Shown: piece by piece, positions 9,854 through 36,879 of the stretch
Layout: each line of letters starts with the position of its first letter
Numbering within the stretch: the first letter of the stretch is position 1
Source of the DNA: Phycisphaerae bacterium
Lineage (GTDB): Bacteria; Planctomycetota; Phycisphaerae; FEN-1346
DNA length: 54,429 nt
Assembly (NCBI GenBank): GCA_049678285.1
Contig: JBAUDW010000018.1
Location: 1-54,429 of the forward strand
Reading direction: 5' to 3'
Notes under the pieces: generated by a model
Database searches by the model: none
Seen by the model: the letters and a program-made list of their open reading frames with translations, nothing else
What the model was told of the DNA's origin: nothing
Translations under genes and position numbers: made by a program

Positions 9854-10059
9854 GGCCGGCCCCTTTTCGCCTGGAGTGGAGTTCGCCCTTTGCTGGTACG
9901 GCTTTCCATCAGGGCGAGTTTTTCAAGCATCTTCAAACGCGCGAGTTCCACTTTCAGCTGCCGGATTCGCTCACGCACCGCGTTCAGGTTTGGCGTTCCC
10001 ATCGTGTATCGTACCTCCTACCCGCATGGTACGAGACAGGACGGAGGGCGCGAACGGGC

Positions 10060-10092
10060 GAACAATGGAAGAACAACGGAAGAACAACGGAA
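10060..10092. repeat. three tandem 11-bp iteron-like repeats GAACAA(T/C)GGAA
   Basis: gaacaatggaa gaacaacggaa gaacaacggaa, with a degenerate copy at 10052-10059. Located between the 621-aa gene stop and the xis-like start. Confidence 0.7.
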
Positions 10093-10107
10093 GGACTGCG
10101 CTCAGGG

Positions 10108-11973: not shown

Positions 11974-12030
11974 TTTCCGCCTGCCTTTCTACGCCCCGCA
12001 GAGGTCCCGTCCGGGAGCCGCCCGCTTCTC

Positions 12031-13347: not shown

Positions 13348-14079
13348 TCACCTAGCAGCACTCGGCACGGTTTCTGGCCAGCTCGATGGTCTGTTGTCTG
13401 GTACCCCAACCATGCCCACCATTGAGGGAATGCCAGTCCCGTCCCTCTTGGGATAAGGGCGCGAGTATGGTGTCAGCAAACGCCGCGCTCGTCGAGTCGC
13501 ACCGCCGGGACCAACGACCATTATGTAACGGTACTTCTTCTGGAGGGGAACCACCCGCAGGTCCCCAACAACCCGAGCGAGTTTGCCTCTGTCACGCGTA
13601 CCGTACAGTTTTCGCACCTTCCAACCTGACATAGGCCTGCCGTCGATCAAGTAGTTGGCTTGGCCTTTCGGGTTTGTCATGCCTGTGTAGGTGGCGTTGG
13701 CTGCTTGGTAGACGGTCCCAACCTCCCCAGACTCTGGGCTCGCATACGCCACGACAAGCAGTGGCCCTCTGATACCTGCCATCGCCTTGTTCGCTCGGGC
13801 GATTAAGTAGCTGGCGGTGCCGCGCGGTACCCAAGCGGCCGTTCCACCACGGCACAGCTGTACGACACCACACTTTGCCTCTCGCGCAACCTGTCCAATC
13901 CAGCTCCGCGTCACGGAGAAGCACGTCGTCCCGTACGAAACGACACCCACAAGCTCCCCGTCAAAACTAAGGCCCCAATGCCACACACCCAAACCGAGAT
14001 CGCCCAAGTGTTCGTGTTGCTCCATGAAATGCTGCGCAGCCTTACGCGACACGCGCGCTAACATGGGGCGGTTTCTCAT
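13348..14079 (-). CDS. Mom-like / GNAT-fold putative DNA (adenine) modification protein
   Basis: 243 aa. AAQHFMEQHEHLG...GELVGVVSYGT...VQLCRG...LLVVAYASPESGEVGTVYQAANATYTGMT...KKYRYI follows the layout I associate with the phage Mu Mom family. Assigned from memory, not from a search. Confidence 0.5.
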   Translation of the reverse strand: MRNRPMLARVSRKAAQHFMEQHEHLGDLGLGVWHWGLSFDGELVGVVSYGTTCFSVTRSWIGQVAREAKCGVVQLCRGGTAAWVPRGTASYLIARANKAMAGIRGPLLVVAYASPESGEVGTVYQAANATYTGMTNPKGQANYLIDGRPMSGWKVRKLYGTRDRGKLARVVGDLRVVPLQKKYRYIMVVGPGGATRRARRLLTPYSRPYPKRDGTGIPSMVGMVGVPDNRPSSWPETVPSAAR

Positions 14080-15928: not shown

Positions 15929-16774
15929 CTACTCAGGTGCGGGTTCGCCGTCGTGAGATACCTGCCACTTGCCGAAGAGGCATACCCATTCGGTGCTCTG
16001 TCCCGCGTCACAGACAGGGCACGCCGGTAGCGGCGTGTTCTTGCGATCCGGGCCACGATTCGCGAAAGAGCCGGGCTTGAACTCGCCGCCCTTCGCCTTG
16101 CCCTTCCGTATGCAGTTCAAGCAGATAAACACACCGTCGCCGGGCTTGTCGCCTGTCTTGAAGTATTCGCCGGATTCAGCCATGACGTGCTCCTTTCCGA
16201 TAGGGCCGGGGCCGGTCAGCCCGCTAACCAATTCGTTTCTTAGTCTCACGACCGTAAACTCGCCTTCGTAAAGGACTTCGGCCGTGGGGCCGTCCTGCTC
16301 GTTCATCTGCCAGTACTGCTCCGCGGCTTGCCACCACTTGCCAATCGTATCATGTCTGTATATATCGAGATAGCGTTCGTCAGCGAAGTGGTATCTTCCT
16401 ACGCTCGTTCGGACTTCCAGGACGCGGCATCGTCCCCCTGAAAGTCCAAGCCACCTCCTCAATGCCCCCGTGTTGGCGGGCGGAATCAAGTACAAGCATC
16501 GCAAGCGCGACGGCTTGAGTGGAAATTGTTCAAGCCTCACTATCTCCATAACAAGTTCACGAATCATCCGATTGTTGTTTGCCGCGAAACGCGCCGAAAC
16601 CGCGAGGACACCCCCCTCCGCCGCAATACCGGCAGCGAATGCTCCGGTCCCCAAAATGCCCCGCGACAGCATGTAGCGCCACATTGGCGTCTGAGTGGCT
16701 TGCGTCGAATAGGTTTTCCCCAGCTCGAAGTTGCCCTCATCACACTCGCGTTCGAGGTGCAAAAAGACGCACAT
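15929..16774 (-). CDS. hypothetical protein with C-terminal Zn-ribbon (CLNC...CPVC); possible internal start at 16183
   Basis: I prefer ATG 16774, which has GGAG upstream. The motif EIVRLEQFPLKPSRLRCLYLIPP has unknown function. An in-frame ATG at 16183 is preceded by AAGGAGCACGTC and would give an 84-aa Zn-ribbon protein. Confidence 0.55.
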   Translation of the reverse strand: MCVFLHLERECDEGNFELGKTYSTQATQTPMWRYMLSRGILGTGAFAAGIAAEGGVLAVSARFAANNNRMIRELVMEIVRLEQFPLKPSRLRCLYLIPPANTGALRRWLGLSGGRCRVLEVRTSVGRYHFADERYLDIYRHDTIGKWWQAAEQYWQMNEQDGPTAEVLYEGEFTVVRLRNELVSGLTGPGPIGKEHVMAESGEYFKTGDKPGDGVFICLNCIRKGKAKGGEFKPGSFANRGPDRKNTPLPACPVCDAGQSTEWVCLFGKWQVSHDGEPAPE

Positions 16775-16851
16775 AATCAGGACTCCCAAGTCAGGCCGCC
16801 AGCGGCCGGACCTCGCAAGGTGCCCATCGTCAGCCCCTTTCCCTTGTCGCC

Positions 16852-17599: not shown

Positions 17600-17857
17600 T
17601 CATTCCCTATCCGGCGGCTTCTTCGAGCCACCGACTTGCTTGCCGAGCCAATAGAGACTATACCCGCCGAGACCGATGGCCGCTCCCAGTCCGATGAACG
17701 GCCCAAGCGTGATCCCCACGGCCGTGCCCGTTAGGGCCACGCCGATACCGCCAATGATGCCATAGACTGCTGCGCCCGCCGCACCACCAACTACCCCCGC
17801 TCCCGCGCACTTCACAGCGTTCTTGGTGCCCTCTTTCATTGCCAGTGCTCCTTTCAC
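17600..17857 (-). CDS. small glycine-zipper membrane protein
   Basis: 85 aa. AGAGVVGGAAGAAVYGIIGGIGVALTGTAVGITLGPFIGLGAAIGLGGY (GxxxG repeats). ATGA overlap with the SNase stop. Confidence 0.6.
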   Translation of the reverse strand: MKGALAMKEGTKNAVKCAGAGVVGGAAGAAVYGIIGGIGVALTGTAVGITLGPFIGLGAAIGLGGYSLYWLGKQVGGSKKPPDRE

Positions 17858-18546
17858 GGTTCATGCGACACTTGGGCATTGCCCCAAAGTCCACGCTTCT
17901 CAGCCTTGGCTTCGGCTTCCGCGATCTCGAAGTCCTCGGCATACCGGCCCCGCCCGTACTTCGTCCAGAACGGCGTCAAGCCCAAGCGGACCATCTCGAC
18001 ATTGACGTTGCGGCCGTCCACGAACACATACGCCAGCAGGCGGCCGTATCGGTCCCGCTCCATCTCGCCCTGGCGCTCAAACTCCAGGACCACCGCGCGG
18101 CCCTCCACAAGGCCCCGCATGGCGACGGCCGCCGCCCCGAAACCCGGCTTGCCGCGCTCCGGCGTGTCGATGCAGAGCAGGCGGACCGGCTCGTCCCGGC
18201 CTTCGTAGCGAACGCGGATCGTGTCCCCGTCCACGATGCGGACCACCGGCCAGGCGTCCACCACGGCCCGCGGCGTGCTTGCCGGCCGGATGCGCTCAAG
18301 TTCGGCCTGTAGCCGTTCGCACTCCTCTCGCGCTCGGGCGGCCTCCTCCGTTTTCGCCCCGAGGGCTTCATGGAAGTATTCGACGGTCCCATGCAGCCTT
18401 CTGACGTTGCCCCGCTCGTTGGCCAGGTTTTGCTCATTCGCAGCGACAATGGTTCGCGCCCACCAGACCGCGACGACTACGATCCCTACTGCCAGGACCA
18501 GCAAGGCGGCCAGGACAAGCGGCAGAATCCATCGGCGGTTCTTCAT
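17854..18546 (-). CDS. membrane-anchored staphylococcal-nuclease (SNase/thermonuclease) homolog
   Basis: I prefer ATG 18546 (MKNRRWILPLVLAALLVLAVGIVVVAVWW as TM anchor). A coiled-coil segment follows, then VDGDTIRVRY...VRLLCIDTPE...DRYGRLLAYVFVDGRNVNVEMVRLG...AEAEAKAEKRGLW. Confidence 0.8.
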   Translation of the reverse strand: MKNRRWILPLVLAALLVLAVGIVVVAVWWARTIVAANEQNLANERGNVRRLHGTVEYFHEALGAKTEEAARAREECERLQAELERIRPASTPRAVVDAWPVVRIVDGDTIRVRYEGRDEPVRLLCIDTPERGKPGFGAAAVAMRGLVEGRAVVLEFERQGEMERDRYGRLLAYVFVDGRNVNVEMVRLGLTPFWTKYGRGRYAEDFEIAEAEAKAEKRGLWGNAQVSHEP

Positions 18547-19160
18547 CGGTTCCCGCTTCCCCGCGCGGCCCCATGCCCGCCGCGTTTTCGTTTCAGCGGT
18601 CGGCCCCCCCATGTTCACGAGCATAACCCCGAATCGCCTCGTCCGTCAAGCCGCACCCCCGGACCATCCCGAGCCGCGCCCGCCACATGGCGCCGACGTC
18701 ACGCGCGCGGTGGCCTCGAGCGCCGGCAAGCGCCGCACGGCCCGCCGCGTCCGCTCAGGCAAGGCGATCCCCCGGTCGGCCGGTCCAGGCGTCGGCCCCG
18801 GAGTCCTTCCCGCCACGAGCCGCCGGCCAGGGCAGCCAGGGGCCAAGAGAATCGCCAGGCCATGCCGCCCATGAAAGCAGCGAGTTACCCGGCGCTACAT
18901 GGGCCCCTCGCGCGTGCGGGCGCGGAGCGTAGTAACGTCTTATGCTATTCCATCCCCTGCATGCCTGAGCAGTACGCCTCATGCCCGGGCCAATGGCAAG
19001 ATGGGCAAGCCCCTGACGACCGAGAGAGATGCGCAAGGAGCACGCGCGGTTCGAGAAAAAGAAGCGAGTCGATCGCGCGCGCGAGCCGGTGGGATCGTCT
19101 GCGTGGTGGGCGCCGCGTTACCAGCCGTCCGGTGGGTTACGGAACCCCCCTGGCTGCTCA

Positions 19161-20343: not shown

Positions 20344-21738
20344 TCACCCGTAGTGCGTACCGACGAGGAAGCCAGCCCGACCGTGGCAAGGATACCCGTT
20401 CTTGTCCTTGTGCGGTTTGAGTACCATGCTCATCTTGGTTCGGCGGAACGTTTTCTGGCACCAGGAACACTGGATGACGTAGATGATGCCAGTCCTCGCG
20501 GGACGGCCAGCATGTCGCCGAGGCGCCGAACGTGGGTTTGTTGTGGTTGGGGCTGCGTGGATCGGCCCCGAACTGGAGAACTCGATCTTGTAGGCAGGTG
20601 CAAAGGGCCGCGTGGTCACCTCGATGCTCTGAACTCGGTCGATGCGGTACGCTCGTGGCTCGCGCGTAACGACCTTGATGGCGTGCAAGATCAGATTCCC
20701 GTCCTGTGTGCGGCGAAGCGAATAAGGCTCGACTAAACGCTTTGACCCGCCGTAGCCAAGGTTGATGCAAAGATGGTTGGCCGCCGCAAACCTCATTGTT
20801 TCCAGAGGAATGCCCTTGCCCCATGCGTAGATCGTTGGTGGAGGCGACCAGACTCCCGCGGGTTCCTCACCGGCACCTGCCGGGACTGTCTGGAGTTGAG
20901 GCGCAGCGCCAGTGCTTTCCAGCCAGTTGAACAAGGCTGGCAGTTCGGCCCAGAAGGAATCAAACGGGGGCAAGACGGGCAACTGGTGGACCAGCATATT
21001 GGCCCACTCCGATTCAAGTTCGACGCGGACGGGCGACGCTTCAATCACCGCGAATGTCGGGACGGGAATCCCCTTCGCCTGGCACTTCTCGACGAGAATG
21101 GCGCGAATGAGTCTCGGCTCGGCCTGAAGATCGGCGCGTCGGAATAAGTTGATGATGTCGTAGAGGTCACGCGGCCGGCTGCGTTCCCCCATCGCACGTA
21201 TCTTCTCCGCAAACAACTCGTCGAAGGAGTAGCATCTCACCGTCGCGGGCGCCGGCAGGTCGTCCGGGTATGCGTGAGCGATGGGCCGCCGCACCGTCGG
21301 ACGGACGACCTTCTCCGAAGCGCTGAGGTCGAGTCTGATGCTGGCGACTTGGGGAGCGTTGCGGGGACCTTGGTAGTAGATGCGCCCCTCCGTATAAAGG
21401 CCTGACGGATGTGTCTTCAGGACGAAAGGGCGGCCGGAGAAGTTCACGCCCGATTCCTCCGCGACCTTCGCCAAGACTTCGCGGATGATCGGCTCCAGTT
21501 CCCCCTGCCGCACCGGTCCGTCCGGCAGGACGGTGAAGTCCAGGTCCTCGGAGAACCGGTATGTCTCAATGTAGCACTTCTTCAGACAGGTGCCACCCTT
21601 GAACGCCCACGACACAGAGAGCTTGGGGTGTACGCCTATCCCCCAAAGCACCCAACCGAGGACATAGTCCTTCTCAACCACATCTTCGCGGAGTCCCCAT
21701 TCGCGGACGCGCTCCTCCAAGACGAACTTGGAGATCAC
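20344..21738 (-). CDS. abiEii: AbiEii-type nucleotidyltransferase toxin with C-terminal WYL-like domain and Zn-ribbon
   Basis: I prefer GTG 21738, with GGGAAGGGAA upstream and a GTGA overlap with the abiEi stop. The N-domain has EKDYVLGWVLWGI...FKGGTCLKKCY...RFSEDLDF. The C-extension has SKRLVEPYSLRRTQDGNLILHAIKVVTREPRAYRIDRVQSIEVT (WYL-like) and CSWCQKTF...YPCHG. Confidence 0.75.
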   Translation of the reverse strand: MISKFVLEERVREWGLREDVVEKDYVLGWVLWGIGVHPKLSVSWAFKGGTCLKKCYIETYRFSEDLDFTVLPDGPVRQGELEPIIREVLAKVAEESGVNFSGRPFVLKTHPSGLYTEGRIYYQGPRNAPQVASIRLDLSASEKVVRPTVRRPIAHAYPDDLPAPATVRCYSFDELFAEKIRAMGERSRPRDLYDIINLFRRADLQAEPRLIRAILVEKCQAKGIPVPTFAVIEASPVRVELESEWANMLVHQLPVLPPFDSFWAELPALFNWLESTGAAPQLQTVPAGAGEEPAGVWSPPPTIYAWGKGIPLETMRFAAANHLCINLGYGGSKRLVEPYSLRRTQDGNLILHAIKVVTREPRAYRIDRVQSIEVTTRPFAPAYKIEFSSSGPIHAAPTTTNPRSAPRRHAGRPARTGIIYVIQCSWCQKTFRRTKMSMVLKPHKDKNGYPCHGRAGFLVGTHYG

Positions 21739-22556
21739 GAGAGGTTCCCTTCCCTGCCAATGTCCACGTTGACACGGAGATTCCAGCGCTTCACGACGCG
21801 GCCAGGTTGCCTCACCGACGGGTCGAGCTGCGAAAGGCCAGCGCTCTTTCGCTGGACACAACGTGATAGGAGTTCAGGCACGTCCAGTTTGAGCACTTCG
21901 ATCAGATAGCCGAGGCGTTTGAACACGGCTCGATTCCCAAGCCGATCACCGTATTCGACAAGTCGGGCCTCGTCGCAGTGCTCGCTGTCGAAATAACTTC
22001 GCAAGATCTCGGCCACGTTCCGAATCCCGCCACCCAGCCGAGAGTCGTCGAGCATGTCCACAATCGTCCTGGTTGGATCGGAAACCAGCGCTTTTGTCTG
22101 TCCACGCCAGACTGCGTGAAGAGCGAAGTGCCTCGAAGCGTCCATGTGCCTCAAGAGAAACGGCGTGCCTTGAATGGTAACGGACCTCCTGCGTATAGGA
22201 GATGCGGTGACCACAACAACATCGCGGAAGATTTGCTCGGTCAAGTGCCAGTACTCACCGGCACTCCACCCCCCGATGTAGCATGGCGCGAACACTGTCG
22301 TAGCCACGACCCACGGGTCCTCGCGCCATTGCGTTGGGGCTGTCGCACCCAGCGGCACAGGGACATAAAGCCCGCGCCTGACGCGGGCAAGCCAACCGCG
22401 CGCGGCGAGGTAGGCCAAGAGGCGACGACATCTTGGCACGTCGATTGAGAGAATGCTGGCTGCCGAAGCCGCATCAACAGGCCCTCTGGCGTTGCGGTGG
22501 AGCCTCTCCAGCAGTCCCCGGTTTCTCTCGTTGATTCCCGTCCGTTCCAGTGGCAT
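21735..22556 (-). CDS. abiEi: AbiEi-type antitoxin / transcriptional regulator
   Basis: 273 aa. N-terminal wHTH LLERLHRNARGPVDAASAASILSIDVPRCRRLLAYLAARGWLARVRRGLY. The rest matches the AbiEi_4-like layout. Sits directly upstream of abiEii. Confidence 0.75.
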   Translation of the reverse strand: MPLERTGINERNRGLLERLHRNARGPVDAASAASILSIDVPRCRRLLAYLAARGWLARVRRGLYVPVPLGATAPTQWREDPWVVATTVFAPCYIGGWSAGEYWHLTEQIFRDVVVVTASPIRRRSVTIQGTPFLLRHMDASRHFALHAVWRGQTKALVSDPTRTIVDMLDDSRLGGGIRNVAEILRSYFDSEHCDEARLVEYGDRLGNRAVFKRLGYLIEVLKLDVPELLSRCVQRKSAGLSQLDPSVRQPGRVVKRWNLRVNVDIGREGNLS

Positions 22557-22724: not shown

Positions 22725-23216
22725 TCATCGTCGCCTCCTCCGGCCTCTGGCCCCGCTCTTGGTTTCCGGCTGCACTTCCGCGGCCTTCGCGGCAAGGATT
22801 CTCGCCACCTCCCGCCTGCCGAGTTTCCGCAGGGCGACCAAGGCTTCCCGGTTGTGGCCTTCGGGCTTGGCCTTCCCGTACTCCCAGGAACCCACCGCAC
22901 TGCCCGACACGCCGACGAGCATGGCCAGTTCGCCTTGGGTGATGCCGAGCCGCTTGCGGAGTTTCTTGACGAGCAGGGGCGAGAGGTGCGCCACCTTCAC
23001 CTCTTCCGGGGCGGCGGCCAGCCTGGCCCGTTCCGCCGTCCGCTGGACCTGCAATTCGGCCCTGAGTCTGGCCAGGACCGCGACCGTCTTTCGCAGGGCC
23101 GACACGGTTCGCTTCAGGCGGCGAACGTCGTGCGCAAGCGGCAGGTAGGTCGCCCGCACCTGCTTCTTGGCAAGCCGCGTGATCTCAGACTTGAGCATCT
23201 GCTCCATCTTGCTCAT
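22725..23216 (-). CDS. XRE-family HTH protein with N-terminal coiled coil
   Basis: LRKRLGITQGELAMLVGVSGSAVGSWEYGKAKP is a classic Cro/C1 HTH. The N-terminal ~80 aa are helical and charged. Confidence 0.7.
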   Translation of the reverse strand: MSKMEQMLKSEITRLAKKQVRATYLPLAHDVRRLKRTVSALRKTVAVLARLRAELQVQRTAERARLAAAPEEVKVAHLSPLLVKKLRKRLGITQGELAMLVGVSGSAVGSWEYGKAKPEGHNREALVALRKLGRREVARILAAKAAEVQPETKSGARGRRRRR

Positions 23217-23316: not shown

Positions 23317-24099
23317 TCATGGGCGGTCGAACCGCACATCACCGCGACCAGGCAAATGCCGGGCACACTCGCGATTGATCGCCTCGTAGGCCTCGACGAG
23401 CTGGTTGTAGTCCGCACAGAACTGCTTCCATCTCTTGCGTAGTTCAGTGTTGGGTTGCGGCTCGCAGTGAATGCCATCGTCGGTGTCGTCTCGCGCAGGT
23501 ATGTGCTTCTCGCAGGCTTTCACCAACTCCTCAAGTTCCCGGAGGATGAACTGCAATTGCAGAAGAAGGTGCTCCGCTGCCTTAGGGGTAACATTCGAGC
23601 AAACAACCTCAAGTTCTCCTGACATGAAAGAACTCCACTTTCCAAGCAGGCTGAGCAGACCTGCGGTCGAATGGATTGCCTCGAATCGAGCGGCGTCGCT
23701 GGCCAAGCCATCAACGACGGCGGGAAGCGAGTTCTGATAGCCGGTGCGCTCCACGATCCCGTGTAGACGGCCCATGAATGGAGCAAGACCCCGCAGGCAC
23801 TCGCGCAGGGCGTTCTTTGTACGATAGGCCTGCAACGCGGCTCTGCCTCTGGCGGTCAGCCACCTCCACGGCAGGGCTCCGGCCAAACATAGTGCTAGCA
23901 AGCAGAGGACAACTATAAGCAGATAGCGAATCCAGGAAGGACCCGTGGAAGTGCTCCAGCCGACCAAGGCGGCCAGGGCAGCTGAGATGAGACCCGCCCC
24001 CGTGCGTATGGCCTCAAGCCAGGCCCGTCTGCTATCGCCGGCATCGCGGTCGTGTGTAGATGGTGTGCTCACTTGACGTGCCCTTTCGTCCCTCTCCAC
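23317..24099 (-). CDS. hypothetical 2-TM membrane protein, last gene of the hsd transcription unit
   Basis: GTG start 30 nt after the hsdR stop, with GAGGG upstream. TM helices AGLISAALAALVGW and YLLIVVLCLLALCLAGAL, then a helical cytoplasmic domain. Confidence 0.55.
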   Translation of the reverse strand: MERDERARQVSTPSTHDRDAGDSRRAWLEAIRTGAGLISAALAALVGWSTSTGPSWIRYLLIVVLCLLALCLAGALPWRWLTARGRAALQAYRTKNALRECLRGLAPFMGRLHGIVERTGYQNSLPAVVDGLASDAARFEAIHSTAGLLSLLGKWSSFMSGELEVVCSNVTPKAAEHLLLQLQFILRELEELVKACEKHIPARDDTDDGIHCEPQPNTELRKRWKQFCADYNQLVEAYEAINRECARHLPGRGDVRFDRP

Positions 24100-24129
24100 T
24101 CGCCCTCTTTCGTTGCCAGCCTCTGCGCA

Positions 24130-27100
24130 CTACGCGGCAATGTCGGAGCACAGGACTTCTGCCTGTTCGAGAACCGTCTGCGTGGCTTTCTCCTGCTTGT
24201 CCGGTGGATAGCCGTATTTACGCAGGACACGCTTCACCATCGCCCGGAGTTTGGCCCGGACGCTCTCCTTAACCGTCCAGTCGATGGTCACATTCCGCCG
24301 GACCGTCTCGACCAGTTCCTGGGCGATCTTGCGGAGCGTCTCGTCGCCGAGGACTTTAACCGCACTATCGTTTACCTCCAGCGCGTCGTAGAAAGCCACC
24401 TCGTCCTCGCGCAGCCCCAGGCGCTCCCCGCGATTGTGGGCCTCCCGCATCTCCCTCGCCAGGTCGATGAGTTCCTGGATCACGGCCGCAGCCTCGATGG
24501 TGCGGTTCTGGTAGGCCCGAATCGTCCGCTCTAACATCTCGGCAAACGACCGCGCCTGGACGACGTTCTTCCGCCGGGACACCTTGACCTCGTCGCTGAG
24601 CAGCCGCCGCAGAAGCTCGATCGCTAAGTTCTTGTGCGGAAGATTCCGCACCTCTGCCAAAAACTCATCGGACAGGATGGAGATGTCGGGCTTGTTGAGG
24701 CCCGCCGCCGAGAAGATGTCGATCACTTTGTCCGAAGCCACGGCGCGCGAGACGATCTGCCGGATGGCGTGGTCCAGTTGCTCCTCGTCGCGAGGCCCGC
24801 CCCCGCCGTCGCCGCTGATCTTCACAAGAGCGGCGCGCACGGCCTGGAAGAAGGCCACGTCGTCGCGGATGCGTATGGCCTCCAGGTGCGGCACAGCGAG
24901 GGCAAACGCCTTCGAAAGGTCGCCGGCGGCCCGCACCAGCCGCTCGCGCCCGTTCTCCTGGGCCAAGATGTGTTCCTGTGCCACGGGCAGGACCGCGATC
25001 CGCTGCTCCGGCGTACCCGTTTTGAACAGGGACCAGTCGAACCCGTGGAAGAGGTCGCAACAGATTTCGTACTTTTCAAGCATAACGGCAACGGCCTCCT
25101 CCTGGTCGAGTGCTGTCTTGCCTTTGCCGCCGCTCTGGGTGTAGTTGGCCATCGCCTCTTGAAGTTGGGTCGCCAACCCGAGGTAATCCACCACCAACCC
25201 GCCCGGCTTGTCGCGGAAGACGCGGTTCACCCTGGCGATGGCCTGCATCAGGGTGTGTCCTCTCATGGGCTTGTCCACGTACATCGTGTGGAGGCATGGC
25301 ACATCGAAGCCCGTCAGCCACATGTCCCGCACAAGGACTATCCGCAACGGGTCGTTCGGGTCTTTGAACCGATTCGCCAATGCCTCGCGACGAGACTTGT
25401 TGCGGATGTGTTGTTGCCACTCGACCGGATCCGTCGCCGAGCCGGTCATGACAACCTTGATTCCGCCGCGTTCATCCTCGCCGGCGTGCCAATGGGGCCG
25501 CAGCCTCACGAGAGCATCGTAAAGGTCCACGCAGATGCGCCGGCTCATGCAGACCACCAGGGCTTTGCCCTCCATCGCCTCCAGACGCGCCTCGAAGTGG
25601 TCCAGAATGTCCTTGGCCACGAGGCCGACGCGCTTCTGTGCGCCGACCATCGCCTCCAGGCGCGCCCACTTCGTCTTGAGCCGTTCCTTCCGCTCGACTT
25701 CCTCCCCCTCGGTCGCCTCTTCGAAGTCGGGGTCAATCTTCGGCCGCTCCTCGTCTTTGAGTTCGAGTTTCGCCAGGCGGCCTTCATAGTAGATCGGGAC
25801 CGTCGCGCCGTCCTCGACGGCCTGCTGGATGTCGTAGATGCTGATGTAATCGCCGAAGACCGCCTGCGTGTTCTTGTCAGCCAGTTCAATCGGCGTCCCC
25901 GTGAACCCGATGAACGAGGCGTGGGGCAAGGCATCCCGCATGTGCCGAGCGTAGCCGTCGATGAAGTCGTACTGGCTCCGATGGGCCTCGTCGGCAATCA
26001 CGATCACGTTCCGGCGCTCGGAAAGCACCGGGTGGTGGTCGCCCTTCTCCTCGGGGAAAAACTTCTGGATCGTCGTGAACACGATACCGCCGGACGCCAC
26101 ATTCAGGAGTTCCCGAAGATGTGCCCGGCTCTCGGCCTGCACGGGACGCTGCCGGAGGAGTTCGCTTGAGCGGGAGAACGTCCCGAACAGTTGATCGTCC
26201 AGGTCGTTCCGGTCGGTGAGCACAACCAGCGTCGGGTTCTCCATTGCCGGGTGCAGGACGATCTTCCCGGCGAAGAACACCATCGTCAGGCTCTTGCCCG
26301 ACCCCTGCGTATGCCAGACGACGCCGCAGCGCCGGCCCCCATCTGGCCGACTTGCCTCCACCGTCGTGTCCACAGCCTTTCGGACCGCATGGAATTGGTG
26401 GTAGCCCGCGATCTTCTTAGCGACCCTCTCCCGCTCATCCTCAAAGAGCACGAAGTGCCGCACGTACTCCAGCAGACGGTGCTTCTCCAGAAGGCCTGCT
26501 AGGAGAACCTGGAGTTGCGGCATGGCCACCGGCGCCACCTTCTCGCCTTCGACCGTTCGCCATGGCATGAACCATTCGCGGTCGGCCGTCAGCGACCCAA
26601 GCCGCGCCTCCAGAGCGTCAGAGACTACCAGCACCTCGTTGTAAGCGAAGAGCGACGGGATTTCGGCCTTGTACGTCTGGAGTTGCTTGAAGGCCGTCCA
26701 AATGGTGGCCGTCTCGTCGGCAGGGTTCTTGAGTTCGATCACCACGAGAGGCAGGCCGTTGACGAACACGACGACGTCCGGCCGCCGTGTATGCCGGTCC
26801 TCGGTCACCGTGAACTGGTTGACTGCCAAGAAGTCGTCATTCCCGGGTTCGTCGAAGTCGAAGAGCCACACCTTGTCCCCGACCACGCGGCCATCCTCGC
26901 CTCGGTATTCCACGTCCACGCCGTCGGTCAGCATCTTGTGAAACGCTCGGTTCGTAGCCACGAGGGACGGACCATGCACCCGCGTCACCTTCCGCAGCGC
27001 ATCCTCCTTGCCCTCGGCCGGGACGTTCGGGTTCAGCCTGTCAATGGCCGCACGCAGCCGGTCGGCGAGGACCACTTCGTCATAGCCCTCCCGCTCTGCG

Positions 27101-27213
27101 TGAAGTTCCCCCGGCGCGATGTCCGGCCCAGGCAGGACCGTGTATCCCATCTGGGCCAGCCAGCCGAGGGCCGCTTCTTCGACAACCGATTCTGTGACGC
27201 CGACCACCGTCAT
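24130..27213 (-). CDS. hsdR: Type I restriction enzyme R subunit
   Basis: 1027 aa. [20 protein letters not shown] (Walker A), [12 protein letters not shown] (DEAH). Helicase C-terminal motifs TGFDVP and QAIARVNR. Confidence 0.95.
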
Positions 27214-27956
27214 GTGCGTTCTCCCAAAACTTCAACTCCAGATGGCGGCATCTCGGCAAGCCCTATAAGGCACCACTCGACCGCCGTCGCCTCGTAAGTC
27301 TCGATGTCGGCCGGAACATCGCCCTCAACGCCGAGTGCCCGGACGGTCCGGGCGAACTCAGGCAGAACGCCGGGGTTGCACTTCACAAACTCGCTGGCGA
27401 AAACTAGCGCCCGCAAGTACTTCCCTAATCTGGGGTGAGCGCCCGTGCCAATGCCGTACTGCAAGGTGACCATACCCGCTTTCGGAAGGTGATTAAGAAA
27501 CAACTTGCGCCCGAATACACCCTGCTCGACCGCTTCTCGATCAAAGATTATAAAGAGGCGGGGGTTCCAGAAGTGCAGGAACTTCGAGATGGCCATGAGC
27601 GAAGGACCGCGCTTGATCTGCTTGACGTCCTTCAACCGCAGCATAACCTTCCACACCGACGGCCACTCCTCGGGCCCAAGTTCCGATAGACGCTTTCCCC
27701 TCATGTCCTGGTCCGAAGCCATAAGATTCGCATGGATGACTTCAGGTGCCTGAACACTCCCGGCCCGGAAAACCTTCCACTTCCGCAAGCCCTTGTAGAC
27801 CGTATTGAAGTCCGGAAGACTTCCGTCGCCCTGGAATGCCTTCGTTGCTGCTTGATACATCTTCAACTGAAAACCTATGTCGTGAACCCATTTCTGTCGG
27901 CCCGAGCAGAACGCCTCAAAGGCCTGTTCCGTGGCTTCCTCAGACAGGCGAATCAT
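27210..27956 (-). CDS. hypothetical protein embedded in the hsd operon (orf248)
   Basis: ATGA overlaps at both ends (27953-27956 and 27210-27213). The motif [18 protein letters not shown] has unknown function. Visibly lower GC than hsdR. Confidence 0.6.
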
Positions 27957-28894
27957 GGCGTCCCTCCGAATTCCGCCTCGTACTCGTCGATGCCCCATTG
28001 GCTCCAGTCGTGACACTCCTGCTCAAAATCCCGCCACAGGGCTTGAAGCCTATCCACCTGTGACGACGCAATGATAGGCCGCTCAATGTACTGGAACTGG
28101 TCAAACTGCGGAATTGCCAGGAAACCTGGACACGCGTCACCCAACACGTAGCCGGCCACGAAACCCGCGACCTCGCACAGGTGCTGGTGGCCTTGCCATA
28201 GGTGGTTCAGCGTGAGCCCGGCCTCGTCGGCCCCCACAGTAGCCCGACTCTCGGGTGTCGCAGCATGCGCAATGAACTTGTTGACGTGCTCAACTACGGT
28301 CTGGCAGGCCCCTTCAACCTTCTGCTGGAGGTTGACGAATACGCACTCCCTAACCGTGTCCTCAGGCCGCCGGCCTTGCGGCCGTATGCCCGCCAACCGA
28401 TCAACCTGTTTGTGCCGGTTTTCATGCTTGTGCCACTGCAGTTCAGGCGGCACCCAGTACGCCCGTTCCCCAGCCGCCTCCCGCTGTCTTGCGTACTCAA
28501 AACACTTCTGGCGCATCGGCTCGTAGTCATACTCCAAGCCCTCCGCCGCGAAGATGGCCTCTCGCGTGAACAGCTCCCGGTTTCTCAACATGTCCGCAAG
28601 CAAGGCTGACATCGAGCACACCCCCCGGCTGCCCTCGAGGGAGTACTTGTCCGTCAGCCGCCGCACGGCCGCCATGTGGCTTGCGAAGAACGCCCGGTCC
28701 AGGAGCGAATGCATCAGTCCGTTGAGTTGTACGCCGCCGTCCGGGTCGGGCGGCGCAAGGCGTCGGGCTTCGTTGACCACCCGGAACGCGGCGGCATCCC
28801 ACGTCATCTGTGTGAGTTGGCGGACGATGGCGTGCCGATCCTTACCGGAGAGGATTTTAAGCCACTCCTTGCGTTCGTCGGCAAGGCTCCGCAT
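27953..28894 (-). CDS. hypothetical protein embedded in the hsd operon (orf313)
   Basis: ATG with GAAGGGGA upstream. Helical protein with VEHVNKFIAHAATPES (weak Abi/HEPN-like flavour, lacking the Arg). Confidence 0.6.
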   Translation of the reverse strand: MRSLADERKEWLKILSGKDRHAIVRQLTQMTWDAAAFRVVNEARRLAPPDPDGGVQLNGLMHSLLDRAFFASHMAAVRRLTDKYSLEGSRGVCSMSALLADMLRNRELFTREAIFAAEGLEYDYEPMRQKCFEYARQREAAGERAYWVPPELQWHKHENRHKQVDRLAGIRPQGRRPEDTVRECVFVNLQQKVEGACQTVVEHVNKFIAHAATPESRATVGADEAGLTLNHLWQGHQHLCEVAGFVAGYVLGDACPGFLAIPQFDQFQYIERPIIASSQVDRLQALWRDFEQECHDWSQWGIDEYEAEFGGTP

Positions 28895-28939
28895 CAGGCG
28901 TCCCCTTCAACGAACTTCTCGGCGTCCTTGATCCGAATC

Positions 28940-29659
28940 TCACCTCAAGTAGTCAGCCGCAAGAGCCCGAATGCCCTTAATCATGCGGTCCACGTCCTCG
29001 GGCCTGACCTTGTGGCCGTCGCCGTGGGCGCAGTTGTTGCGGATGTCCGCCCAAGCCCGGATTTCGTGGGCCTTGGCCGCGCTGTAGACACCCGCCTTGG
29101 CCAGGTCGTCGTTCGTTGCGTTGATGCCCCTGCGCTCCCCGCTCGGCTTCGTGGTGGCAACGCCTTTCTCATCGCACAGTTTGCGCAACGCGTCTTCGAG
29201 AACCGCCCCGGCAAGCACGGCCGCCGGCACATAATAGCCCTCCGCGTAGAGCACCTCTGCTTGGGCGAGATAGTCACCCGCCAAGTCGGCCCGCATAATC
29301 GCAGCCAACTCGCCGAGGAAACCTTTCTCGCAGTCCTCCTTGATCGCTTTCAGGAGTGCGACTCCATACTCCAGCGAATCCTTCCTTACGACCAAAACGC
29401 TGAACCGCTCGACTTCGGCCCGGTGCGGATGTTGAGCTGGGACCACGTGCGTCAGTAGCGTCTTGGCATTGGTCCGCCACTTCACGAAACGTGGCAAGTC
29501 CATGTGGTGGTGTTCGCTGACGCCCCAAATTGAGCCAGTGATATTGTCGCGCCGTGCGTGGCGAGTCACCGTCGTCGCTGCGTGAAGAGCCTCCCCCTCG
29601 GCTATGAGGTCGTCGAACCGCTCCAGGACTTTCTCCTGAAGTGCACGCTGAATGCTCAT
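28940..29659 (-). CDS. DUF4145/HEPN-like protein embedded in the hsd operon (orf239)
   Basis: The C-terminal domain AAVLAGAVLEDALRKLC ... KAHEIRAWADIRNNCAHG carries an R-x4-H HEPN-type motif. Starts 8 nt after the hsdS stop. Confidence 0.65.
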   Translation of the reverse strand: MSIQRALQEKVLERFDDLIAEGEALHAATTVTRHARRDNITGSIWGVSEHHHMDLPRFVKWRTNAKTLLTHVVPAQHPHRAEVERFSVLVVRKDSLEYGVALLKAIKEDCEKGFLGELAAIMRADLAGDYLAQAEVLYAEGYYVPAAVLAGAVLEDALRKLCDEKGVATTKPSGERRGINATNDDLAKAGVYSAAKAHEIRAWADIRNNCAHGDGHKVRPEDVDRMIKGIRALAADYLR

Positions 29660-29667
29660 GCAGTCAC

Positions 29668-30894
29668 CTACTCAATACACTTCTCCGCATCCTTGATCCG
29701 AATCTCGCCCGACAGAAGTTTCGGCAGCAGCGCGTCGCGGATCGCCGCCAGCGTCGAAGACTCGTTCAAGTTTGCCGTCATCCGTCTGTGCAACGGTTCG
29801 ACCTGCTCCACAAACGCTTTGCGCATTTCAAGAGACGGGACGAGCACTTGAATCGGCCGGAAGTTTCGCTTGCTGATCTCGGCAAAAGTCGTCCCTCCGG
29901 CGTTAGCCTTGATGATCTCCATGTTGACCTCGGTCCAATACAGCACGTAGTAGTTGGGTAAGTCGCCATCGCAGATCATGGCGATGATGCCCTGGTTGAC
30001 CGAAACCGGGACTTCGGTAATAGCCAGATACCCGATGGGCGCCCGCGACGAGAGAAGCACTGTACCGACCGGAAGGCGCCCCGAACTGATCTTCTCGACC
30101 CCCGCATCCGTGATGTGCCGCTCCGTGTCCAACATGACCGGGCTCGTAAGCGTTGACATATCCTTGGGGGTTGCGAACGGATTCGTGCCACCTTGCCAGA
30201 AGCAAGTCTCCTTCGTGCTCGGCGTCGCACCGCCCACGCAGCGGACAGCCTTGCCGATCTCCCTGACATACCAACCCCTCGGAATCGGGCCGAGGGGGGA
30301 GTCCTGGAAGGAATCAGGGAAGAGGGCGGCTAGGTCGGCCGGGAGACTGGGGTCGCGGCCTTCGGCCTTGGCGTGAACGGGGTCGAAGTCCACGAACCAC
30401 GACTTGAAAATCGCCCGCGCCATCGCCTCTAGCGTCTCGTTCATCCGCCGGTTCAACTCGATCTTGTCGTCCAGCGTCCCCAGGATGTGGGCGATGGCCT
30501 TCTGCTCAGCTAGAGGGGGCAAAATGATCGGCAACGGGTGAATATGGTTGCGATTGAGCGTTGGTACGCCACTTCCCGCGTTGAAACGAAGAAAGTCCAT
30601 CGAGAGAATCAGATAATAGCAAAAGCGCCGATCATTTCCCTTGAAATCCTTCACCCAGAGCGTTGTGTTCAGGGGCCAGAAGTCCTGCCGGATGTACTGC
30701 CCACCGCCGAGACTGCCGCTGCGCCCAATCACCACGCCGGGCCCCTTGACCTTGGCCTCATTGTGGTACCCCACGCAGCCAGTGGAGGCTATCACAGGCA
30801 CGTGACCGTCTGCTCGGCGATAGGCTGGCAGGTCGAAGCCACGCTGAAGCGTAAGAGCATCCCCTAAGACCATGTGGGGCCACTCAGTCGCCAT
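29668..30894 (-). CDS. hsdS: Type I R-M specificity subunit
   Basis: I prefer ATG 30894 (MATEWPHMVLGDALTLQRG, GGAG upstream). Two target-recognition halves separated by conserved helices (LPPLAEQKAIAHILGTLDDKIELN ... ALLPKLLSGEIRI). Confidence 0.9.
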   Translation of the reverse strand: MATEWPHMVLGDALTLQRGFDLPAYRRADGHVPVIASTGCVGYHNEAKVKGPGVVIGRSGSLGGGQYIRQDFWPLNTTLWVKDFKGNDRRFCYYLILSMDFLRFNAGSGVPTLNRNHIHPLPIILPPLAEQKAIAHILGTLDDKIELNRRMNETLEAMARAIFKSWFVDFDPVHAKAEGRDPSLPADLAALFPDSFQDSPLGPIPRGWYVREIGKAVRCVGGATPSTKETCFWQGGTNPFATPKDMSTLTSPVMLDTERHITDAGVEKISSGRLPVGTVLLSSRAPIGYLAITEVPVSVNQGIIAMICDGDLPNYYVLYWTEVNMEIIKANAGGTTFAEISKRNFRPIQVLVPSLEMRKAFVEQVEPLHRRMTANLNESSTLAAIRDALLPKLLSGEIRIKDAEKCIE

Positions 30895-30980
30895 AACCCA
30901 CAATCTCCATGTTAGCACGAACAGCCTTCTCCAGCCGCGCCGACTCGGTAACCCGTTCACACAACGTTGCCACAAATCTC

Positions 30981-31835
30981 CTACCTATTGGCGTCATCCT
31001 GAACGGCTGTTTTCTTCAAATGGGACTCGACCTTCCCAAGCAACTCGCGATAGAAAGCGTTGCAGGCTGTCACCAGTTCTTGAACGGGAAGTTTCGAATA
31101 ATCAATTCTGCCACGTTCGTCGAGAACGTCCCACCTCCGCAACTGGGCGAATGTGGTATCGGCATAGTTCCTCTCGCCTTCGGGTATGTAATGCCCATCA
31201 TAGTGTTTGTAACAGTTACTCAGCACGCGAATGGCATTGACAATGTGAAACTCCTTGCATCCATCGAGAACTACGCTTCCCTCCTTCTTCAACAGGCCCT
31301 TGAAGTCCGCAAACTCCCTCGGAATGCTCGCCTCGATCTGCTTAAGAGCCCCTATGCACGCCCGACGCTGCACGTCAGTCGTCTTGCCTTCCGAGAACTT
31401 CTTGCATAGACCCTTCGCCTTTTCGATTTCTTCCTTGCGCTTACCAGTTGCGACTCGACAGCACCCGAGCACGGACCGAAGAAGGTGCTCCATGTCAGCC
31501 CAGATGGAAACCACGAGCGCCCCGTACATCTTTGAGGTGACGCTCTGCGTTTCAGCATGGATATCTGCTGCCCAGTCGCCGGCCTCGTAAAGCCTTGCTT
31601 CGGGGTCAGACGACTTGGCAGCCGAAGCCTCCCATTTCGCAAAGTGCTTCTTGAGCGACCGCTCATCATCATCGTGTCCAGCCCTGATGCGGCCCTCCCA
31701 CCTGTCATAGTGAGAACCGAGATAACTGTCGTCGCCGGGGAAAGCCTCACTGGCCAGACTCTTTATAAATTGCCATTGCATCTGCCAAAGGGGAGGTCTC
31801 TTGTGCTTCTTCCGTTTGGGGTGCTCAGCCGCCAT
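30981..31835 (-). CDS. hypothetical protein embedded between hsdM and hsdS (orf284)
   Basis: The start overlaps the hsdM stop by 11 nt. Sampled 60-nt windows are about 50-55% GC against about 73% in hsd[16 protein letters not shown] is only a loose HEPN-like hint. Confidence 0.6.
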
Positions 31836-33384
31836 AGGCCAGCCCCTTCAGGTTGGCGCGAATAGCCTTCTCTAGTCGCGCCGACTCGGCGAACTGCTCC
31901 TCCAGTCTGGCCACGAGGCGGGGCATCTTCTCCTCGAACGGCTCGCCGTCGTCCTCGACCTCCCCGGCCCCGACGTATCGGCCGGGCGTGAGCACAAAGC
32001 CATGCTCGGCGATCTCGTCTGTGGTCGCGGACTTGCAGAAACCGGGAATGTCCTCGTACTTCCCCGCGTCCTTCTCGCCGCGCCAGGCGTGGTAGGTCCG
32101 GGCAATCCGGTCAACGTCGGCCTGGGTCAACTCGCGGTGGGTGCGGTCAACCATCGTGCCAAGTTTCCGGGCGTCGATGAAGAGCGTCTGGCGGCGGCGG
32201 TCGCGGAACCGGCCATTGCCTTTGCTCCGGGCCAGGAACCAGAGGCACACCGGAATCTGCGTCGTGTAGAAGAGTTGCCCCGGCATGGCGAGCATGCAGT
32301 CCACCAGGTCCGCCTCGATGATCGCGCGGCGGATGTCGCCCTCGCCCGACTGGTTCGAGGACATCGACCCGTTGGCCAGGACGAATCCGGCGATGCCGTT
32401 CGGCGCCAGGTGGTGGATGAAGTGCTGAATCCATGCGTAGTTGGCGTTGCCGACGGACGGGACGCCGTACTTCCAGCGGACATCCTTTCGGATGTGTTCA
32501 CCGCCCCAGTCGCTCATGTTGAACGGGGGATTGGCGAGGATAAAGTCGGCCTTCAGGTCCTTGTGAGCATCATTCAGGAAGGAGCCCTGCTCGTTCCAGG
32601 CGATCTGGCCCTCGATGCCGCGGATCGCCAGGTTCATCTGGCAGAGGCGCCAGGTGGTGTAGTTCGACTCCTGGCCGTAAATGGAGATGTCGTCGCGGCG
32701 GCCGTCGTGGGCCTCGACGAACTCCTCGGACTGGACGAACATGCCGCCGGAGCCGCAGCAGGGGTCGAAGACGCGGCCCTTAAATGGCTCGATGACGGCG
32801 ACGAGGACGCGGACGACGTGGCGGGGCGTGTAAAACTCGCCGCCCAGTTTGCCCTCGGCGGCGGCGAACTTGCCGAGGAAATACTCATAGACGCGGCCGA
32901 GAACGTCCTTTGAGCGGCTCTCCTTGTCGCCGAGGCTGACGCTCGCGAAGAGGTCAATCAGTTCGCCCAGGCGGCGCTTGTCGAGGGCGGGGCGGCCGTA
33001 GTCCTTGGCGAGGATGCCCTTCAAGCGGGGGTTGTCCCGCTCGATGGCGGCCATGGCGTCGTCGATCAGTTTGCCGATTTCGGGACGCTTGGCGTTCTTC
33101 TGGAGGTAGGGCCACCGGGCCTCGGGCGGAACCCAGAAGACGTTTGCGCCGGTGTACTCGTCGCGGTCTTCGGGGTCGGCGTGCGGCTGGCGCTTGAGGT
33201 GCTCCTGGTGATCCAGGAAGGCGTCGGAGATGTACTTGAGGAAGATGAGGCCCAGGGCGACGTGCTTGTACTCGGCGGCGTCCATGTTGCCGCGGAGTTT
33301 GTCGGCGGCCTGCCAGAGCGTCTCCTCGAAGCCTAAGGCACCAGCCGATTGGTTCGCGTTCTTCTTCGCTTTCCTCTTTGCCAT
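31825..33384 (-). CDS. hsdM: Type I R-M DNA methyltransferase subunit
   Basis: HsdM N-terminal domain [35 protein letters not shown] motif [12 protein letters not shown]. Catalytic ILANPPFN. Confidence 0.95.
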
Positions 33385-33457
33385 CGCTGCCCCCCGTCAG
33401 GGCCCGATTCACCTTTCGGGTATGACCCGCGCACAGGCGGGCGGTTGAATCGGTATA

Positions 33458-33486
33458 AGGATAACCGCGCGGCGGGGTTTCTACAA
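33458..33486 (-). promoter_or_regulatory. possible promoter of the hsd operon
   Basis: On the minus strand: TTGTAG (33486-33481), 17 nt, TATCCT (33463-33458), about 70 nt upstream of the hsdM ATG. Confidence 0.25.
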
Positions 33487-34394: not shown

Positions 34395-34457
34395 GCCTTC
34401 GTCGGGGGGATTTCGTAAGTCCTTATCGGTACAGGGGGTTACGTCTGGCGGTTCGTC

Positions 34458-34474
34458 TCCTCTCGAGCGCACCA
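34458..34474 (+). repeat. attR core (duplicate of the tRNA-Leu 3' end)
   Basis: TCCTCTCGAGCGCACCA. The flanking sequence diverges from the tRNA locus immediately after CCA. Confidence 0.8.
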
Positions 34475-36727: not shown

Positions 36728-36879
36728 GGAGGGAGACCATCGCCGCTCGCTTCCTATGCCTCAAGCGGCCCTCTCATCGGACGGTCTTCACTTGACCCGG
36801 CTGCGCCCCTCAGGATACCCTGTCTTGGCAGAGAGTGCGGGCGAGTGGCGGAACTGGCAGACGCTAGGGACTTAAAATC
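36596..36879 (+). repeat. left copy of the direct repeat (protease 3' end, intergenic region, tRNA-Leu(UAA) 5' half)
   Basis: About 4 mismatches over the first ~135 nt against 51261-51395. The intergenic part is related, but the right copy carries an extra ~58 nt. The last 41 nt differ from the tRNA 5' half at 1 position. Confidence 0.8.
36839..36879 (+). pseudogene. truncated tRNA-Leu(UAA) 5' half
   Basis: GGGCGAGTGGCGGAACTGGCAGACGCTAGGGACTTAAAATC matches 51562-51602 except for 1 nt. Similarity ends 2 nt past the anticodon loop and no 3' half follows. Confidence 0.8.

Follow-up and report, generated by a model that had tools for sequence, protein, structure and literature searches.

A type I restriction-modification operon on a tRNA-Leu genomic island as a probable recombination hotspot for abortive-infection-type gene cassettes

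Introduction

Why does a type I restriction-modification (R-M) operon carry four additional genes between its hsd genes, and do these genes form one system with the R-M enzyme? This question is raised by a contig of a Phycisphaerae bacterium (JBAUDW010000018.1 of assembly GCA_049678285.1), which was analyzed over its full length of 54,429 nt and is called the window here. On its minus strand, positions 23317-33384 hold eight co-oriented open reading frames (ORFs), leading from hsdM to an ORF for a protein with two hydrophobic, putatively transmembrane segments (2-TM ORF). The genes orf284, orf239, orf313, and orf248 lie in between, interleaved with hsdS and hsdR. An initial annotation, made from the sequence without database searches, regarded these four genes as later insertions and proposed that they build a composite defence system with the hsd genes and the 2-TM protein, in analogy to the PrrC anticodon nuclease.

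Type I systems often hold embedded genes, which are mostly defence-related and to 96.7% co-oriented with the hsd genes, and PrrC is almost exclusively found embedded (bioRxiv 10.1101/2024.01.29.577857). The site between hsdS and hsdR was proposed as a potential recombination hotspot (PMC12255303). Experimentally validated embedded systems are TgvAB on Vibrio pathogenicity island 2 (VPI-2) of Vibrio cholerae (PMC11411939) and DarTG2, located between hsdS and hsdR of enteropathogenic Escherichia coli (EPEC) (PMC12255303). DUF4145 and AbiU2 proteins, both with HEPN domains, are listed in R-M operons, and the combination of HEPN and R-M genes was described as a multi-layer defence strategy (PMC3710099).

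For the locus described here we consider it probable that the type I R-M operon is a recombination hotspot for independent abortive-infection-type cassettes and that it lies on a tRNA-Leu island. The evidence that carries this reading comes from displaced copies of hsd gene ends at the borders of the inserted genes and from the distribution of the insert families.

Results

Displaced hsd Gene Ends at the Borders of the Inserted Genes

The operon, all on the minus strand, starts with hsdM (31825-33384, 519 aa), followed by orf284 (30981-31835), which overlaps the hsdM stop by 11 nt. The hsdS gene (29668-30894, 408 aa) starts 86 nt beyond orf284, orf239 (28940-29659) follows after 8 nt, and orf313 (27953-28894) after another 45 nt. 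The orf248 gene (27210-27956) has ATGA overlaps with both orf313 and hsdR (24130-27213, 1027 aa), and the 2-TM ORF (23317-24099, 260 aa, GTG start) is located 30 nt beyond hsdR. Gene order, gaps, and overlaps were exactly as initially annotated, and all peptide motifs quoted at that time were found. Thus orf284 is cargo of the hsdM/hsdS junction, while orf239, orf313, and orf248 are placed between hsdS and hsdR.

The 86 nt gap after orf284 was identified as a diverged, displaced copy of the hsdM 3' end (30884-30979, minus strand, repeat D1), the stop codon of which overlaps the ATG of hsdS. This scar is 71% identical over 91 nt to positions 31824-31914, and tblastn against the HsdM C-terminus revealed 60% identity over 30 aa (E 1.8e-7). 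The junction of the true hsdM stop with the ATG of orf284 has the same kind of overlap, and the four opening codons of orf284 (ATGGCGGCTGAG) copy the start of hsdS (ATGGCGACTGAG). In a related hsd locus without a gene between hsdM and hsdS (L093; comparison loci are numbered with L and single proteins with P), hsdM ends with GYGG before the stop and overlaps the hsdS ATG by 11 nt. Since this overlap matches, the hsdM/hsdS junction is probably ancestral and orf284 was probably inserted there. A homolog with 68% identity to orf284 retains only the hsdM-like tail DLAYGG and a stop before its ATG.

The 45 nt gap after orf239 represents a copy of the hsdS 3' end (28894-28944, minus strand), which encodes GEIRIKDAEKFVEGDA followed by a stop that overlaps the orf313 start (TGATG). 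A 38 nt core within it (repeat D6) showed 84% identity to the true hsdS end at 29672-29709, and 11 of 13 aa were matched by tblastn (E 0.002). The overlap of this scar stop with the orf313 start points to an earlier operon hsdS'-orf313-orf248-hsdR with overlaps at all junctions, in which most of hsdS' would later have been replaced by hsdS together with orf239. Because duplicated hsd ends are present at their borders, we concluded that the inserts are later acquisitions. This had been claimed before from base composition and is now directly documented by the duplicated gene ends. We found no description of such scars at cargo borders in the literature searched.

Three gene ends of the window were used as tblastn queries against 108 loci comprising 880 kb, and the hsdS 3' remnant recurred in L033, L035, L037, L051, L056, and L076. 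In L035, an hsdS gene (338 bits to HsdS of the window) is followed by three cargo genes with two hsdS 3' remnants between them. In L033, an Abi_C gene, a 259 aa gene, and an hsdS 3' remnant precede an orf248 homolog. The cargo of L051 (1-6834) comprises at least six genes with three hsd-end fragments: an hsdR 5' fragment and an hsdS 3' remnant are followed by genes for Schlafen/AlbA_2 and DUF3800 proteins, a 167 aa ORF without family match, AbiJ, an orf248 homolog, a second hsdR 5' fragment, a 371 aa gene, and finally the real hsdR. In L076 (79-312) and in protein P0007, a fusion of hsdR (residues 6-62) with hsdS (residues 371-408) immediately precedes an orf248 homolog. The joint between hsdR and hsdS sequences that L076, L051, and P0007 have in common suggests a recurrent or inherited recombination joint. 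P0007 itself (327 aa) is an ORF in which about 50 aa of the HsdR N-terminus and a remnant of the HsdS C-terminus are joined to a complete orf248 homolog.

Scars were also present on plasmid NC_011737.1 of Gloeothece citriformis PCC 7424 (L037, 6911-7910). They flank the closest plasmid homolog of orf239 (DUF4145), with an hsdS 3' remnant at 6911-6982 (E 8e-5) and an hsdR 5' fragment at 7773-7910 (E 6e-7), which is annotated as a hypothetical protein. No hsd gene was found within 7 kb of this homolog. The plasmid gene thus seems to have departed from an hsd operon as a cargo cassette, taking its scars along. When the hsdS tail was searched against plasmids of cultured organisms, 47 records were obtained, nearly all of them with ordinary hsdS ends, and no further scar example beyond NC_011737 was among them; the sole unannotated match was an hsdS split by IS5.

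Genomic Neighborhood of the Insert Families

The initial annotation proposed a survey of whether homologs of the inserts recurrently sit next to hsd genes, and the outcome differed between the families. For orf313, 26 GTDB loci with 10 kb flanks were analyzed by phmmer, and a 13-sequence alignment was used for the genome scan. In all 26 loci no hsdM, hsdS, hsdR, or orf248 homolog was found within 10 kb, and no neighbor was conserved across the 26 genomes. The plasmid homologs of orf239 are solo genes, and also the 41% identical homolog of orf284 stands alone, beside genes for a ligase and DnaB. For orf248, enrichment beside hsd genes was clear and not exclusive: in 14 of 66 loci (63 metagenomic and 3 from IMG/VR) hsd genes or scars were located beside the orf248 homolog. 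As most of these contigs have a length of only 1-5 kb, this count is to be taken as a minimum, and it far exceeds the background.

The hsd-adjacent loci show the orders hsdS-orf248-hsdR (L064), hsdM-hsdS-orf248 (L093), and orf248-hsdR (L063 and L106). In L067 (6300-16350) an orf248 homolog, a protein kinase gene, and a gene for a TPR protein are located between hsdS and hsdR, with hsdM preceding hsdS. Other orf248 loci have long flanks yet lack hsd genes (L001, L002, L004, L049, L068, L082, L090, and L099). Next to an orf313 homolog, orf248 was found again in L054 and L055, in reversed order and without hsd genes, and in L102 it is followed by an orf239 homolog. The cargo of the sister loci is of typical defence type, with AbiJ, Abi_C, Schlafen, DUF3800, and kinase plus TPR genes. 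All four insert families are thus also found apart from one another, and in most cases apart from hsd genes, which does not agree with the idea of a dedicated composite system.

The Embedded Genes orf239 and orf313 Belong to HEPN Families

For orf239, 26 tblastn matches on plasmid records were obtained, which are annotated as DUF4145 or HEPN domain proteins in the PLSDB gene table. Comparison to three plasmid homologs revealed an invariant RNxxAHG motif with R207, N208, and H212 (R207-N-N-C-A-H212), and the spacing of Arg and His is that of the Rx4-6H motif of HEPN proteins. The homologs gave sub-threshold matches to the DUF4145, RiboL-PSP-HEPN, HEPN, and Swt1 HEPN models. Based on the plasmid annotations, the invariant motif, and these scores within the HEPN clan, orf239 is, at the superfamily level, a DUF4145-like HEPN protein and a predicted RNase, and the earlier assignment was right at this level.

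The orf313 family comprises about 130 clusters, mainly from metagenome-assembled genomes of Planctomycetota, and many members have a precomputed match to PF18734 (HEPN_AbiU2). Homologs with 40-69% identity exceeded the PF18734 cut-off of 26.8 bits (P0048 with 28.4, P0089 with 31.7, and P0132 with 27.9 bits). The residues H210 (of the motif KFIAH), R217, R78, and R79 are invariant. By profile scores of its family, orf313 belongs to the AbiU2-family HEPN proteins, and what had been a weak HEPN hint has thereby become a family assignment.

By Pfam scan, a nucleotidyltransferase domain as in HEPN-MNT pairs was absent from the operon. On the Acetobacter plasmids NZ_CP021525 (L117) and NZ_CP023190 (L118) a HEPN-MNT pair is located inside the hsdM/hsdS junction, the slot that orf284 occupies in the window. 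This pair consists of a nucleotidyltransferase substrate-binding protein and a nucleotidyltransferase, and the hsd operons have the same type of HsdS tail. In L022, L025, L026, and L027 (about 8000-12400), a subclade of orf313 homologs is found, together with a conserved 126 aa gene, between two genes which we take to be gatA and gatB from the look of their N-terminal sequences. There, a housekeeping operon seems to have taken up an orf313-like gene of defence type.

The Embedded Genes orf284 and orf248 Lack Annotated Relatives

The orf284 family is small, with 8 clusters among 5.8 billion proteins. The AlphaFold2 (AF2) model is all-alpha with a predicted local distance difference test (pLDDT) score of 82, and Foldseek against the PDB gave no match, the top result being a designed helical repeat (E 0.17). 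The residues R203, N207, K210, and H211 are invariant; the spacing of 7 between R203 and H211 is beyond the range of Rx4-6H. The PADLOC RTasHEPN model reached merely E 0.032, and hhalign against the families of orf313 and orf239 gave nothing. With neither fold nor profile match and with the wrong motif spacing, the suggestion that orf284 is also a HEPN protein is not supported.

The orf248 family has 46 clusters and matched none of the Pfam, NCBIfam, PADLOC, or PHROG profiles. Its AF2 model is also all-alpha and has high confidence (pLDDT 93.7, predicted template modeling score (pTM) 0.91), and Foldseek found no match with E < 0.9 in the PDB or BFVD. As judged from this model, the fold is apparently novel. 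The residues K125, H128, N131, D139, R64, and Y180 are invariant and cluster in a 16-residue segment. The idea that SKFLHFWNP...D marks an OGG/HhH-type glycosylase was discarded, as NCBIfam, Pfam, and Foldseek gave no such match.

None of orf248, orf313, orf239, and orf284 has a sequence relative with a solved structure, and PHROGs gave nothing useful. No insert matched the candidate models (PDC, HEC) of PADLOC v2; the sole contact was that of the hsdR C-terminus with PDC-S15. That the inserts might be decayed HsdS or HsdR fragments had been named initially as a refuting outcome. All-against-all BLASTP gave nothing with E < 0.01, and the hhalign probabilities between families were below 1%. 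The inserts are not Hsd fragments and are mutually unrelated.

The R-M Genes and Their Expression Unit

The hsd genes were compared to domain profiles. HsdM matched the Pfam models HsdM_N (E 2e-26) and N6_Mtase (PF02384, E 7e-105) and the PADLOC model MTase_I (E 2.7e-228), and its translation carries the NPPF motif (LANPPFN). In HsdS two stretches matched Methylase_S (PF01420), and the PADLOC model Specificity_I (E 1.6e-115) was covered from position 1 to 399 of 405 by residues 28-434 of a longer hsdS ORF. As the true ATG of hsdS is at 30894, this 435 aa ORF with TTG start is an over-extension artefact. HsdR showed the Pfam domains HSDR_N, SWI2_SNF2, T1R_D3-like, and T1RH-like_C, scored 621 bits with TIGR00348 (E 1.9e-186, cut-off 284) and 1146 bits with PADLOC REase_I, and retains a DEAH box and the D...ELK nuclease motif. 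Profiles and motifs thus recovered the complete domain content of type I HsdM, HsdS, and HsdR, and the three genes are, as far as sequence can tell, an intact, full-length, and functional-looking three-subunit type I R-M operon.

The GC content is 0.543 for orf284 and 0.566 for orf248, compared to 0.621 for orf313, 0.615 for orf239, 0.647 for hsdM, and 0.632 for hsdR. At third codon positions (GC3) it is 0.65-0.68 for orf284 and orf248 versus 0.83-0.89 for hsdM and hsdR. The direction of the composition contrast noted earlier was thus confirmed for orf284 and orf248, while its size was overestimated: hsdM has 64.7% and not 73% GC, and orf313 and orf239 barely differ from the hsd genes.

A consensus scan of the minus strand from hsdM to the 2-TM ORF revealed no sigma-70-like promoter and no intergenic terminator. 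This is compatible with a single transcript and no proof of it. Also the spacing fits the earlier proposal of one unit, in which the genes would be co-transcribed and orf313, orf248, and hsdR translationally coupled. About 20 contigs share the full layout of the window. Since their DNA is 100% identical, they represent one strain.

The 2-TM Protein and the Surrounding Island

The 2-TM protein is represented by 6 clusters among 1.84e9 proteins, with five relatives. On 100% identical DNA from different assemblies (L109-L116), gene callers place three different starts, giving 251, 172, or 152 aa, and the two hydrophobic segments, which are conserved in the homologs, are present in the longest gene call only. 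As the homologs align across this hydrophobic N-terminus, the ORF is a real gene, and its long form is probably the right one. Homologs were absent from all of about 115 related loci, which speaks against the 2-TM protein as a member of the unit as initially suggested. Tblastn of gene ends detected no hsdR 3' scar on the 3' side of the gene.

The operon is located at the right end of a region of about 29.9 kb (4495-34474). On its left side there is a tRNA-Leu(CAG) gene (4495-4582), which is adjoined by an integrase-like gene with a Phage_int_SAM_5 match (4545-5840). A direct repeat of the tRNA 3' end (GGTTCGTCTCCTCTCGAGCGCACCA) is found 29.9 kb away at 34450-34474, with 23 of 25 nt identical and 17 exact. 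The GC content is 0.57-0.64 inside and 0.65-0.70 outside of this region, and the right flank carries housekeeping genes (MoxR, DUF58, BatA). These features suggest that tRNA-Leu and the repeat delimit a single integrated genomic island, of which the hsd operon is a part.

Directly after the 2-TM ORF, the minus strand carries an HTH_3/MqsA-like gene (22725-23216) and the genes for AbiEi (21735-22556), preceded by a promoter-like site at 22636-22608, and for the AbiEii toxin (20344-21861), which also has a weak WYL match just under the Pfam cut-off. Together, these genes are predicted to be a second abortive-infection module of the same island. Further island cargo comprises a serine recombinase (12031-12735), a Mom-family protein (13348-14079, E 2e-17), a DUF2441 protein (15929-16789), and a staphylococcal-nuclease-domain protein (17854-18624).

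Two observations were made outside of the island. Positions 36845-36864 hold a 20 nt exact match to the 5' part of tRNA-Leu (GTGGCGGAACTGGCAGACGC), at which no tRNA was called and which may be a tRNA fragment or a relic of another integration site. The region 48001-49000 shows an AT skew of 0.75 at 73% GC inside a 1481 aa ORF (45502-49947, DUF4175 match) and looks like a low-complexity repeat rich in Ala, Gln, and Glu.

Discussion

We favor the view that the hsd operon has served as a hotspot for the exchange of independent defence cassettes. The hsdM/hsdS and hsdS/hsdR junctions would be the landing sites for single-gene cassettes, which would be swapped between related hsd operons by recombination in conserved ends. 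These would be the 3' end of hsdM together with the start of hsdS, the 3' end of hsdS, and the 5' end of hsdR. With each exchange, a displaced, diverged copy of a gene end would be left behind the cargo. The repeated border element is hsd coding sequence, and thus homologous recombination is indicated. The joint of hsdR 5' and hsdS 3' sequences would be the expected product of one crossover of a circularized molecule consisting of hsdS tail, cargo, and hsdR head, and the moving unit seems to be cargo plus hsd-derived tails.

If the genes are transcribed as a single polycistronic unit, with orf313, orf248, and hsdR translationally coupled, expression of the restriction enzyme would, through this coupling, always entail that of the cargo. 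The R-M enzyme would methylate self DNA and cut unmodified DNA. When restriction fails, orf239 and orf313 may act as a second layer, as self-contained latent effectors of the RNase and abortive-infection type, while orf284 and orf248 would be further cargo. The cargo genes would act independently of each other and of the Hsd proteins, and the 2-TM gene, the AbiE genes, and the HTH gene would be neighbors in the same mobile defence island and no subunits.

Several points weigh against this reading. The scars span only 38-91 nt at 71-84% identity, and the recombination route was reconstructed and never observed. The homologs of orf239 reached 18.6-21.6 bits with PF13643 (cut-off 23.1), and orf239 itself has no Pfam match with E < 0.1. 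The orf313 protein of the window scored only 19.3 bits with PF18734, under the gathering cut-off of 26.8, and has K206 where the canonical Arg of Rx4-6H is expected, four positions before H210. Most comparison contigs are short, which makes missing hsd genes weak evidence, and very distant type I families may have escaped phmmer with a single HsdM, HsdR, or HsdS query. Finally, orf248 is enriched beside hsdR. Its independence from the Hsd proteins is the least secure, because in the window, as in L051, L063, L064, and L106, orf248 or its homolog is followed directly by hsdR or by an hsdR 5' fragment.

An alternative is that one or several inserts are latent toxins which are held by the Hsd complex and freed when a phage anti-restriction protein of the Ocr, ArdA, or Stp type disables restriction, as in the PrrC analogy of the initial annotation. 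In accordance with such a guardian role, the inserts are embedded in the hsd operon and apparently translationally coupled to hsdR, two of them belong to the HEPN superfamily, which includes the nuclease domain of PrrC (PMC3710099), and orf248 homologs with hsd genes or scars beside them are often immediately 5' of hsdR. However, the ABC-ATPase domain by which PrrC and RloC are defined was not found in any insert (Pfam, NCBIfam, and PADLOC), and the nearly exclusive linkage to hsd genes is lacking, as in none of the 26 genomes an orf313 homolog is near hsd genes, and hsd genes are missing as well from most orf248 loci whose flanks are long. Homologs of orf239 and orf284 exist as solo genes, and therefore their control cannot require Hsd proteins. 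The inserts thus do not qualify as PrrC-type guardians, and we consider this explanation unlikely; a guardian role is left as a minority possibility for orf248 alone.

Still less probable, in our view, is that the inserts are passive hitch-hikers, i.e., selfish, neutral, or decaying genes without a role in defence that are kept since hsd junctions tolerate insertions. The lack of functional annotation for orf284, orf248, and the 2-TM protein (Pfam, NCBIfam, PADLOC, and PHROGs) and the lower GC3 of orf284 and orf248 would fit to this. However, all ORFs are intact and have conserved homologs and confident structure models, two inserts belong to abortive-infection HEPN families, defence-type genes make up the cargo of the sister loci, AbiE is encoded in the surrounding island, and most embedded genes were found to be defence-related by Payne et al. 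(bioRxiv 10.1101/2024.01.29.577857). An obligate, co-evolved multi-subunit machine made up of all eight or nine genes, the 2-TM gene among them, is very improbable, since the tight spacing, the single orientation, and the same layout on about 20 contigs are countered by the identity of these contigs as one strain, by the lack of any other locus with this gene set, with partners and order varying, by the absence of 2-TM homologs from every related locus, and by scars that show stepwise assembly out of different hsd alleles.

The hotspot with independent cassettes, which we therefore prefer, is close to known embedded-defence type I operons (DarTG2, TgvAB, the Campylobacter rlo genes, and the guilt-by-embedding survey). 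They share co-oriented cargo of defence type, mainly in the hsdS-hsdR slot. In contrast to them, four single-gene cargos are distributed over two junctions here, none of them matches PADLOC v2, and two families are unannotated. The initial annotation considered the operon as much richer than its precedents. This cannot be maintained, as the related hsd operons L067 and L051 hold three to six embedded genes, and both HEPN genes in R-M operons and guilt-by-embedding have already been published (PMC3710099; bioRxiv 10.1101/2024.01.29.577857). What is new here is which cargo families are present, the seemingly novel fold of orf248, and the hsd-end scars, while the arrangement itself was already known.

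With PrrC (EcoprrI, type IC) and RloC the locus has in common a HEPN-superfamily gene inside a type I hsd operon and the idea of a second, abortive layer. PrrC and RloC are fusions of ABC-ATPase and HEPN domains that are found almost only in type I loci and are kept latent by the R-M complex, whereas the inserts described here have no ATPase domain and belong to families that mostly occur outside of hsd loci. Compared to the DUF4145 proteins described previously (PMC3710099), orf239 shares the RNxxAH motif, and its homologs carry this annotation, but orf239 and its close homologs stay under the gathering cut-off. The orf313 family exceeds the threshold of AbiU2 (PMC3710099), but orf313 is about 120 aa longer than the model and has Lys instead of Arg before the conserved His.

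Gene-cassette arrays such as integrons, and islands that restore the 3' end of their target, also show one-way stacking of single promoterless genes downstream of a resident promoter, border repeats, and a displaced end of the target gene. Unlike in these arrays, no integrase and no attC-like folded site is associated with the cassettes here. A more far-reaching version of our reading, which we put forward only tentatively and regard as rather doubtful, is that type I hsd operons of the lineage with T1RH-like_C HsdR constitute an integron-like capture platform without integrase. Each unit would consist of cargo with the 3' tail of hsdS on one side and the 5' head of hsdR on the other, or with an hsdM 3' tail and the hsdS start. 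Such units would be stacked or swapped by homologous recombination and could even move to sites without hsd genes, for which the Gloeothece plasmid is an example. In this version orf248 would have a previously undescribed all-alpha fold and would be functionally tied to HsdR, either sensing or guarding restriction or modulating it.

As a source of new antiviral systems, genes embedded in R-M operons have proven productive. The locus adds three unannotated candidate families to this source, among them orf248 with its confident model, no known fold, and a tendency to be located just upstream of hsdR. The duplicated hsd ends provide sequence-level evidence for how the proposed hotspot between hsdS and hsdR operates, and isolated hsdS 3' and hsdR 5' fragments are a searchable signature for cargo, even for cargo that is gone from the R-M operon.

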